Made by a program: the position numbers and the translations under genes. A DNA stretch of 1,689 bases from Naegleria gruberi (lineage: Eukaryota), in the NCBI GenBank assembly GCA_000004985.1, contig GG739346.1; one strand, written 5' to 3'. The notes beneath the pieces are model-generated. The model saw only the letters and a program-made list of their open reading frames with translations. It did no database searches and had not been told where the DNA came from. Shown piece after piece: positions 190 through 801 of the stretch (position 1 is the first letter of the stretch; each line of letters begins with the position of its first letter).

Positions 190-265
190 TAATTGGATAA
201 GAGAAGTATGACTAAATTTGTTGAAGAGTGTCTAAAAGGTACTGATTATGCTAAGAAACTACTAG

Positions 266-801
266 CATGTTTCAACCAGTTCTTTATCAAATAAGTTTAT
301 ACAAATCCAACTTCCCAAAAGGAGGGAGTGTTTTCAATTAATAGATCTTTTAAAAGATATTCATTCAAAAGGATTTTGTCACAGAGATATTAGACCTGAT
401 AATGTTATGCGGACTGATGATGGTAAATTGATATTAATTGATTGGGGTTTTGCATGTGCAATTAATGAGACAACTTTTTTTGCTGGTATTATTTCTTTTT
501 GTGCTGATGATTATTAAGGTTGCGTTTTGGATCAAAATACTTTCATAAGACCGTACAAGAAAGAGTATGATTGTGAATCAATGCTAAAAATTTTTTGTTT
601 TTGGTTTGATGAAGATAAAATAGAAATATTATCAGTGAACAGATTAAAGCTAGAAATTTTTGGACTAATTTTAATAAGTTGAATTTCCAATCAATTTTAA
701 AACAAATTCATACCAAAAATTCTGATCCTTATGAAGTTCTTAAATCATTTTTACTAAAAACAATATTGATTAAAATAAGTTGGAATGTTGCTGGATAATA
801 G
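266..801 (+). CDS. Casein-kinase-1-superfamily-like protein kinase catalytic domain. The gene is disrupted or recoded: frame 2 runs 266-679 with an in-frame TAA at 515-517, and frame 1 runs 619-795 ending TAA-TAG at 796-801. It is either a pseudogene, a gene needing TAA-as-sense translation, or a gene with small introns.
   Basis: In frame 2 the motifs IHSKGFC-HRD-IRPDN (HRD at 380-388) and LILI-DWG-FA (DWG at 440-448) lie 20 residues apart, as for catalytic loop and DFG in ePKs. IHSKGFCHRDIRPDNVM closely resembles CK1 IHSKNFIHRDVKPDNFLM. The same frame continues after the TAA into an alphaF-like DCESMLKIFCFW (CK1 DDLESLGYVLMYF), 43 residues after DWG versus about 46 in CK1. Frame 1 then gives KQIHTKNSDPYEVLKSF (CK1 ...EKKMSTPIEVLCKGYP). 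Frame 2 has no ATG between 266 and 407 and no TGA in 212-679. Confidence 0.55.
329..514 (+). CDS. Best-supported core of the kinase domain: alphaE through the catalytic loop, DWG and activation segment, as a standard-code ORF segment ending at TAA 515-517.
   Basis: Direct translation gives CFQLIDLLKDIHSKGFCHRDIRPDNVMRTDDGKLILIDWGFACAINETTFFAGIISFCADDY. The HRDxxxxN and D[FW]G spacing and context are canonical for the eukaryotic protein kinase fold. Confidence 0.7.

Follow-up and report, generated by a model that had tools for sequence, protein, structure and literature searches.

A kinase remnant read across an in-frame TAA is very probably a recently inactivated DUF6826-kinase gene copy from a standard-code eukaryote

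The window, by which we mean the whole 1689-nt stretch of DNA analyzed here (30% G+C), very probably contains at 282-801 a recently inactivated partial copy, or pseudogene fragment, of a multi-copy DUF6826-kinase gene from a eukaryote that uses the standard genetic code. In the putative course of inactivation, a 5′ truncation at 282 would have cost the copy everything upstream of the pre-catalytic-loop helix, a TTA to TAA nonsense mutation would have interrupted it at a conserved leucine (515-517), and a 13-nt deletion after 647 would have thrown the conserved C-terminal part into another frame. Homology to an intact gene is clear and comes together with a nonsense codon, a 13-nt deletion and a 5′ truncation, the combination by which a pseudogene is recognized. 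The homology, the three lesions and the stop-codon use in a near-identical copy and in Willaertia paralogues were observed directly, and we infer that the 282-801 copy lacks function. A first-pass annotation of this DNA had weighed two accounts of the interrupted kinase domain, a ciliate-type code and a standard-code gene hit very recently by a nonsense mutation. The second is supported by our results, and the 13-nt deletion and the truncation at 282 strengthen it. The evidence can be explained without invoking an alternative genetic code, programmed frameshifting or readthrough.

Extent of the kinase remnant and position of its lesions

The features of the window that bear on this reading are listed here with the evidence for each.

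1-281, no strand: region upstream of the homology breakpoint, without detectable relation to the kinase family (blastn, DNA alignment, HMM, protein-to-DNA alignment)
282-647, plus strand: kinase remnant, frame 2 (blastn, tblastn, frameshift-aware alignment, family HMM, Pfam Pkinase)
380-403, plus strand: catalytic loop HRDIRPDN (the H, D, R, P and N columns do not vary within the family alignment)
440-448, plus strand: DWG, the family version of the DFG Mg-binding motif (D and W invariant in the family alignment)
515-517, plus strand: premature stop TAA (TTA in the near-identical copy, TTG in Willaertia, family column L/L/L/A/A/A/L)
647-648, plus strand: junction of the 13-nt deletion, where frame 2 passes to frame 1 (AGAAAGCAGAGGG is present in the near-identical copy)
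649-795, plus strand: conserved kinase C-terminal segment ARNFWTNFNKLNFQSILKQIHTKNSDPYEVLKSF..., now in frame 1 (tblastn, family HMM, identity to the near-identical copy)
796-801, plus strand: TAA-TAG, the ancestral terminator of the gene, frame 1 (agrees with the homologue ends in the family alignment)

The remnant at 282-647 begins with the pre-catalytic-loop helix, continues with HRD, DWG and the activation segment and closes with the DCESMLK...FCFW helix, and the motifs of the family C-lobe are present in the window (DWGFA, FAGTxSFCAxxY, YDCESLLK and an IW/FW...PYxAL tail). The Pfam PF00069 Pkinase profile matched at 38.2 bits (cut-off 31.7; E=1.4e-9), over profile positions 104-152 of 263 only. 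We built a family HMM from nine family members and ran it in six frames; in frame 2 it returned one domain across TAA-515 (HMM positions 308-419, E=1e-55), where the reading is ...KGFCHRDIRPDNVMRTDDGKLILIDWGFACAINETTFFAGIISFCADDY-TAA-GCVLDQNTFIRPYKKEYDCESMLKIFCFWF... and the stop at 515-517 comes after the HRD/DWG motifs and before the conserved helix. Both tblastn and frameshift-aware alignment carried the homology across this stop as well, in agreement with the original description of an in-frame TAA lying between the catalytic motifs and that helix.

In frame 1, the same HMM matched at HMM positions 432-470 (E=1.2e-8), and the C-terminal segment at 649-795, which reads ARNFWTNF...PYEVLKSF in that frame, was also recovered by tblastn with the Willaertia protein P0002 (E=2.5e-8). 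The frameshift was placed at 637-652 by tblastn and by frameshift-aware alignment. The kinase frame had initially been drawn as 212-682, but frame 2 is homologous only to about 647 and the homology then continues in frame 1 after the 13-nt deletion; because the deletion moves the homologous frame in this way, the frame-2 stretch at 648-679 and the TGA at 680 are out-of-frame junk. The upstream end of the earlier frame needs a similar correction, in that TAA 233-235 and TAG 263-265 are indeed in frame 2 but lie upstream of the homology limit at 282 and not inside the kinase reading frame. The frame had also been described as having no ATG, whereas ATGs occur at 248, 407 and 581, none of them plausible as a start codon.

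A copy at 97% identity retains the uninterrupted frame at both internal lesions

When the stop-free piece 266-514 was scanned against all 1.84 billion representative proteins, P0001 ranked first (97%) and P0002 second (58%), and the remaining matches tailed off into generic kinases. A 1351-nt contig from a k-mer based metagenome assembly (ENA ERZ929261, k127_543747, sample ERR1078381; hereafter L003) encodes P0001 and belongs to the same gene lineage as the window, be it as a paralogue, an allele or a close strain, with 97% DNA identity over 282-739. In the alignment of window 282-739 with L003 881-1351, 455 of 471 positions are identical, with three substitutions and one 13-nt gap; identity is also 97% over the stretch that corresponds to the frame-2 remnant (L003 881-1246 against window 282-647), and from 649 to 739, where L003 ends, the two are identical. 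The substitutions are T in the window versus C in L003 at position 489 (Ile/Thr), A (TAA) versus T (TTA, Leu) at position 516, and C (CAA, Gln) versus T (TAA) at position 533, and at three they are too few to measure relaxed selection.

Unlike the window, L003 keeps a complete 5′ part (a 315-codon ORF), the 13 nt, and TTA at the site of TAA-515, and it reads in one frame through ...EILSVNRLKKAEGARNFWTNFNKLNFQSILKQIHTKNSDPYEV, including the 13 nt AGAAAGCAGAGGG that are deleted after window position 647. A sense codon at the TAA position in a standard-code orthologue, which the first-pass annotation had named as the sign of a pseudogene, was found both here (TTA) and in Willaertia (TTG). TAA-515 is very probably a nonsense mutation, a T-to-A change at 516, derived from an ancestral TTA (Leu). 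The 13-nt deletion arose in the window copy, since L003 and Willaertia both keep 22 residues between FCFW and FW.

L003 has an in-frame TAA of its own at 1132-1134 (equivalent to window 531-533), which ends the called protein P0001, and the homologous frame continues beyond it to the contig end. The L003 copy is thus itself also disrupted, or is a polymorphic null allele. Because the window was chosen for containing a stop, one further stop in L003 is not remarkable. A word-index search with P0001 returned only P0001, P0002 and P0060, with no further near-identical copies, and an exact-match search of viral contigs for the window returned none.

The DUF6826-kinase family in Willaertia and Naegleria

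Full-length members of the family have an N-terminal DUF6826 domain (PF20713) followed by Pkinase (PF00069). The heterolobosean amoeba Willaertia magna contributes two hypothetical proteins from a single cluster, P0002 and P0151, and further members come from Naegleria fowleri and from metagenomes. After P0001, the best matches to the window are the Willaertia P0002 and then Naegleria fowleri proteins, and judged by these matches the host is most likely a heterolobosean amoeba akin to Willaertia and Naegleria; a giant virus infecting amoebae of this type is a remote alternative. The Willaertia magna pair, KAL9653573.1 (P0151, L005) and KAL9653581.1 (P0002, L004), is encoded on one 233-kb contig at loci within ~30 kb of each other. 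These proteins resemble the window in the kinase C-lobe at 51-58% amino-acid identity, with the motifs HRDIRPxN, DWGFAC, FAGTxxFCADxYLGC and YDCExxLKxFCFWF and the FWxNF...PYxxLKxFL tail in common. The window differs from the Willaertia copies in being without the N-terminal domain and N-lobe, in having the Leu of YLGC replaced by a nonsense codon and in its 13-nt frameshifting deletion, and its G+C content is 30% compared with 21% in Willaertia. The Naegleria fowleri DUF6826 and Pkinase proteins, such as XP_044563498.1 (P0042), share the family architecture and C-lobe motifs with the window but are only ~38-40% identical to it in the common part and are full-length, at roughly 400-570 aa.

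The P0002 locus, like the window copy, is disrupted by in-frame TAA codons, and the type of decay is the same: relative to its intact paralogue KAL9653573.1 (P0151), to which it has 96% protein identity in one continuous frame, it shows CAA-to-TAA changes at two Gln codons and a 6-nt deletion. The paralogues show 24 nucleotide differences, and in 16 of these the change towards the disrupted copy is C-to-T or G-to-A. In the comparison of L004 6001-7218 (JBEGDK010000051.1) with L005 3001-4203, we observed that the gene model of KAL9653581.1 skips the two in-frame TAA codons by a modelled intron. What has been annotated here as a spliced gene is probably a pseudogene, a minor error in the record that deserves notice.

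A metagenome scan added two distant kinases only, neither of them informative, one of which lies on a giant-virus-like AT-rich contig (L001, JACCDO011557369.1, 22.6% G+C). At ~1700-2900 this contig encodes an intact standard-code kinase with the same KDIHSKGF motif and HSDIKPEN in place of HRD, and it looks like a giant-virus-type or protist contig whose kinase is only distantly related. The literature on DUF6826 and on a link to Crinkler-type nuclease-plus-kinase proteins in Naegleria gave nothing usable, and for this reason we claim no Crinkler relationship.

The homology breaks off at 281/282

The blastn match to L003 begins at window position 282, where the 97% identity is lost within a few bases. 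Upstream of this point, DNA local alignment performed no better than with shuffles, frameshift-tolerant alignment to the N-lobes of P0001 and P0151 likewise scored no better than shuffles, the family HMM matched no kinase N-lobe in any of the six frames, and a DUF6826 domain was not found upstream of the remnant on the same strand. As judged from the sequence, the window copy appears to be without the DUF6826 domain, the kinase N-lobe (with its Gly-rich loop and ATP-anchoring Lys) and a start codon. The breakpoint could instead be an assembly chimera in this multi-copy family and not a real truncation.

We also considered whether 1-281 might represent a heavily decayed N-lobe. Two pointers in that direction are a common 13-mer, TTATTGGACAAGG, at the Gly-loop codons and the resemblance of 'VLIMLRNY' to 'ILIMKKYH'; DNA alignment, HMM and frameshift-tolerant alignment all failed to beat shuffles, and the candidate was rejected. 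At the other end of the window, the minus strand of 1434-1532 (VVQ-stop-LYYLHQLIAHNNNKRIALQS-stop-THYSNVLF) bears a weak likeness to the GQVxxYL...LTNYxxIxF motif of the family N-terminal domain, with a score of 5.7 bits that was reached by 1 of 100 shuffles and with two in-frame stops inside. The likeness may be due to chance, or the stretch may be another, older remnant that lies in the opposite orientation.

Stop and glutamine codon usage

Stop codons were counted frame by frame in the remnant and its relatives. The homologous frame-2 part (284-646) contains one TAA in frame against 10 off frame, whereas TAG (0 against 3) and TGA (0 against 13) are confined to the other frames. Over 212-679 there are 15 TGAs, and not 11 as the first-pass annotation had counted, with none in frame 2. 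The absence of TGA from this frame was therefore correctly noted, but the TGA-specific avoidance seen in it was not, given that all three stops are avoided in 284-646; the apparent specificity disappears because the upstream TAA-233 and TAG-263 are non-homologous. That frame 2 lacks TGA and has hardly any TAA or TAG is due solely to the slight divergence of the copy, ~3%, from an ORF and to the short time it has had to gain stops.

The same counts in the relatives describe that ORF. TAA, TAG and TGA are absent from the frame of the 315-codon L003 ORF (0/0/0), compared with 24/17/26 off frame, and the 400 codons of the intact Willaertia paralogue (L005) contain no in-frame stop, compared with 50/15/19 off frame. 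Gln is encoded by CAA in 6 of 6 cases in the homologous part of the window (170 codons) and in 10 of 10 cases in the L003 ORF, and by 12 CAA and one CAG in the intact Willaertia paralogue. The terminator of the ancestral window frame is TAA-TAG (796-801), and that of the Willaertia gene is TAA. At the column of TAA-515, L003, Willaertia (TTG) and a further Willaertia paralogue have Leu and Naegleria-type members have Ala; Gln never occurs there. The equal purging of all three stops, together with the service of TAA as terminator, is the signature of the standard code, which the host of this kinase family appears to use.

Three of the four in-frame stops seen in the family are CAA/TAA differences (one in L003 and two at the Willaertia P0002 locus), so that the L003 TAA and both Willaertia stops sit at Gln positions. 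About 6% of all single-base changes in the homologous segment create a stop. With Willaertia as outgroup, two of the three differences between window and L003 are C-to-T, and CAA-to-TAA is the dominant nonsense route because these are genomes of 21-30% G+C in which Gln codons are nearly all CAA. The prevalence of CAA/TAA differences can be put down to mutation bias, which in very AT-rich genomes favors C-to-T, although for so few events this is an argument and not a proof. The same observations could be read to mean that TAA is occasionally decoded as Gln in the source amoeba, and perhaps in Willaertia, through low-frequency or context-dependent reassignment or readthrough, with the CAA/TAA copies (L003 and the P0002 locus) still expressed and the window copy alone dead through frameshift and truncation; to this reading we assign a very slim chance.

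Weighing of alternative explanations

In ciliates that use translation table 6, TAA and TAG encode Gln and TGA is the only stop. The first-pass annotation gave the lead to such a reassignment, under which the kinase would be translated through 515 and TGA would be the sole terminator. The likeness of the window to this code is a superficial pattern, an in-frame TAA inside a conserved domain and a frame without TGA (0 of 15 in 212-679), to which may be added that the kinase homology does run on across TAA-515 and that the L003 TAA versus window CAA and the two Willaertia TAA/CAA differences would all be silent if TAA were Gln. Against this, TAA-515 aligns with Leu (TTA/TTG) and not with Gln, every Gln of the homologous part of the window and of the L003 ORF is written CAA, and in the intact relatives TAA (0 of 24 in L003 and 0 of 50 in Willaertia) and TAG (0 of 17 and 0 of 15) are depleted from the frame as strongly as TGA. 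TAA moreover ends both the ancestral ORF and the Willaertia gene, and the 13-nt frameshift and the 5′ truncation would be left unexplained. No tRNA was found by a tRNA scan of the window, in which Rfam, repeat and tandem-repeat scans also detected nothing relevant. Neither the table-6 translation of 212-679 nor the minus-strand ORF described below had a match in word-index searches of proteins. Reassignment is displaced from its leading position and is, in our assessment, highly improbable. Programmed recoding of a functional gene, in a standard-code or Euplotes-like manner, is a still fainter prospect, to which we give next to no credence. It would require readthrough at TAA-515 or a +1 frameshift at the AAA-TAA of 289-294, and AAA-TAA is the +1 frameshift motif of Euplotes; the frame-1 AAA-TAA here fits that motif, and a +1 shift would lead into frame 2. 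The same bases, however, are read as TCA-AAT-AAG inside the uninterrupted L003 ORF, frame 1 upstream of them is without family homology, and the second frame change is not a slippery site but a deletion absent from L003 and Willaertia, so the likeness to the Euplotes motif is apparently a coincidence. Short introns (GT..AG, 20-34 nt, near 295-328 and 604-635) were tried as an explanation of the frame changes from 1 to 2 and from 2 to 1; the first model was dropped because L003 reads straight through in one frame, and the second because the change from frame 2 to frame 1 is the 13-nt deletion.

An assembly or sequencing artefact is the remaining alternative, in which the gene would be intact and the TAA, the 13-nt gap and/or the 281/282 junction would stem from collapsed paralogues or chimeric joining. 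The multi-copy family, with copies that are 96-97% identical, is a setting in which chimeras arise, L003, at 1351 nt, is a short product of k-mer based metagenome assembly, and the abrupt loss of identity at 282 is of the kind that a chimeric join would leave. A chimera would account for the 5′ break and leave the nonsense codon and the deletion unexplained, and a clean 13-nt deletion or a single-base transversion is rare as a short-read consensus error. In addition, the independently assembled L003 has a different stop, and a Willaertia genome-assembly copy has two, so disrupted copies of this family truly exist. We consider an artefact unlikely. The evidence thus favors the reading of 282-801 as a young pseudogene fragment, which accommodates the nonsense codon, the deletion and the truncation together.

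Biologically, this reading carries little weight, as it adds one more decaying duplicate to a lineage-specific multi-copy kinase family of AT-rich amoebae. It does hold a lesson for the scanning of sequences, since a domain that reads through a single TAA in a TGA-free frame has the look of any young pseudogene, its parent ORF having been cleared of all three stops, TGA among them. CAA-to-TAA, the commonest nonsense change where a genome is very rich in AT, mimics Gln reassignment. The choice between recoding and a pseudogene is settled by comparison with a close paralogue and by counting each of the three stops frame by frame.

Other open reading frames in the window

Two further ORFs were observed. 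On the minus strand, 757-1014 is an 86-codon standard-code ORF (EDTPEPVQYIPTLEDLNNFFICEDLEFYFDVKHGLIQGLDDDF...), which would extend over 748-1095 if TAA and TAG were read through; it has no Pfam match and no homologue by word-index search, and it overlaps the last 45 nt of the ancestral reading frame of the remnant in convergent orientation. On the plus strand, a putative 92-codon Lys/Glu-rich ORF at 1174-1452, for which no significant Pfam match was obtained and an exact product look-up gave no record, ends at TAA and is followed ~60 nt downstream by TAATAA/AATAAA (1513-1519).
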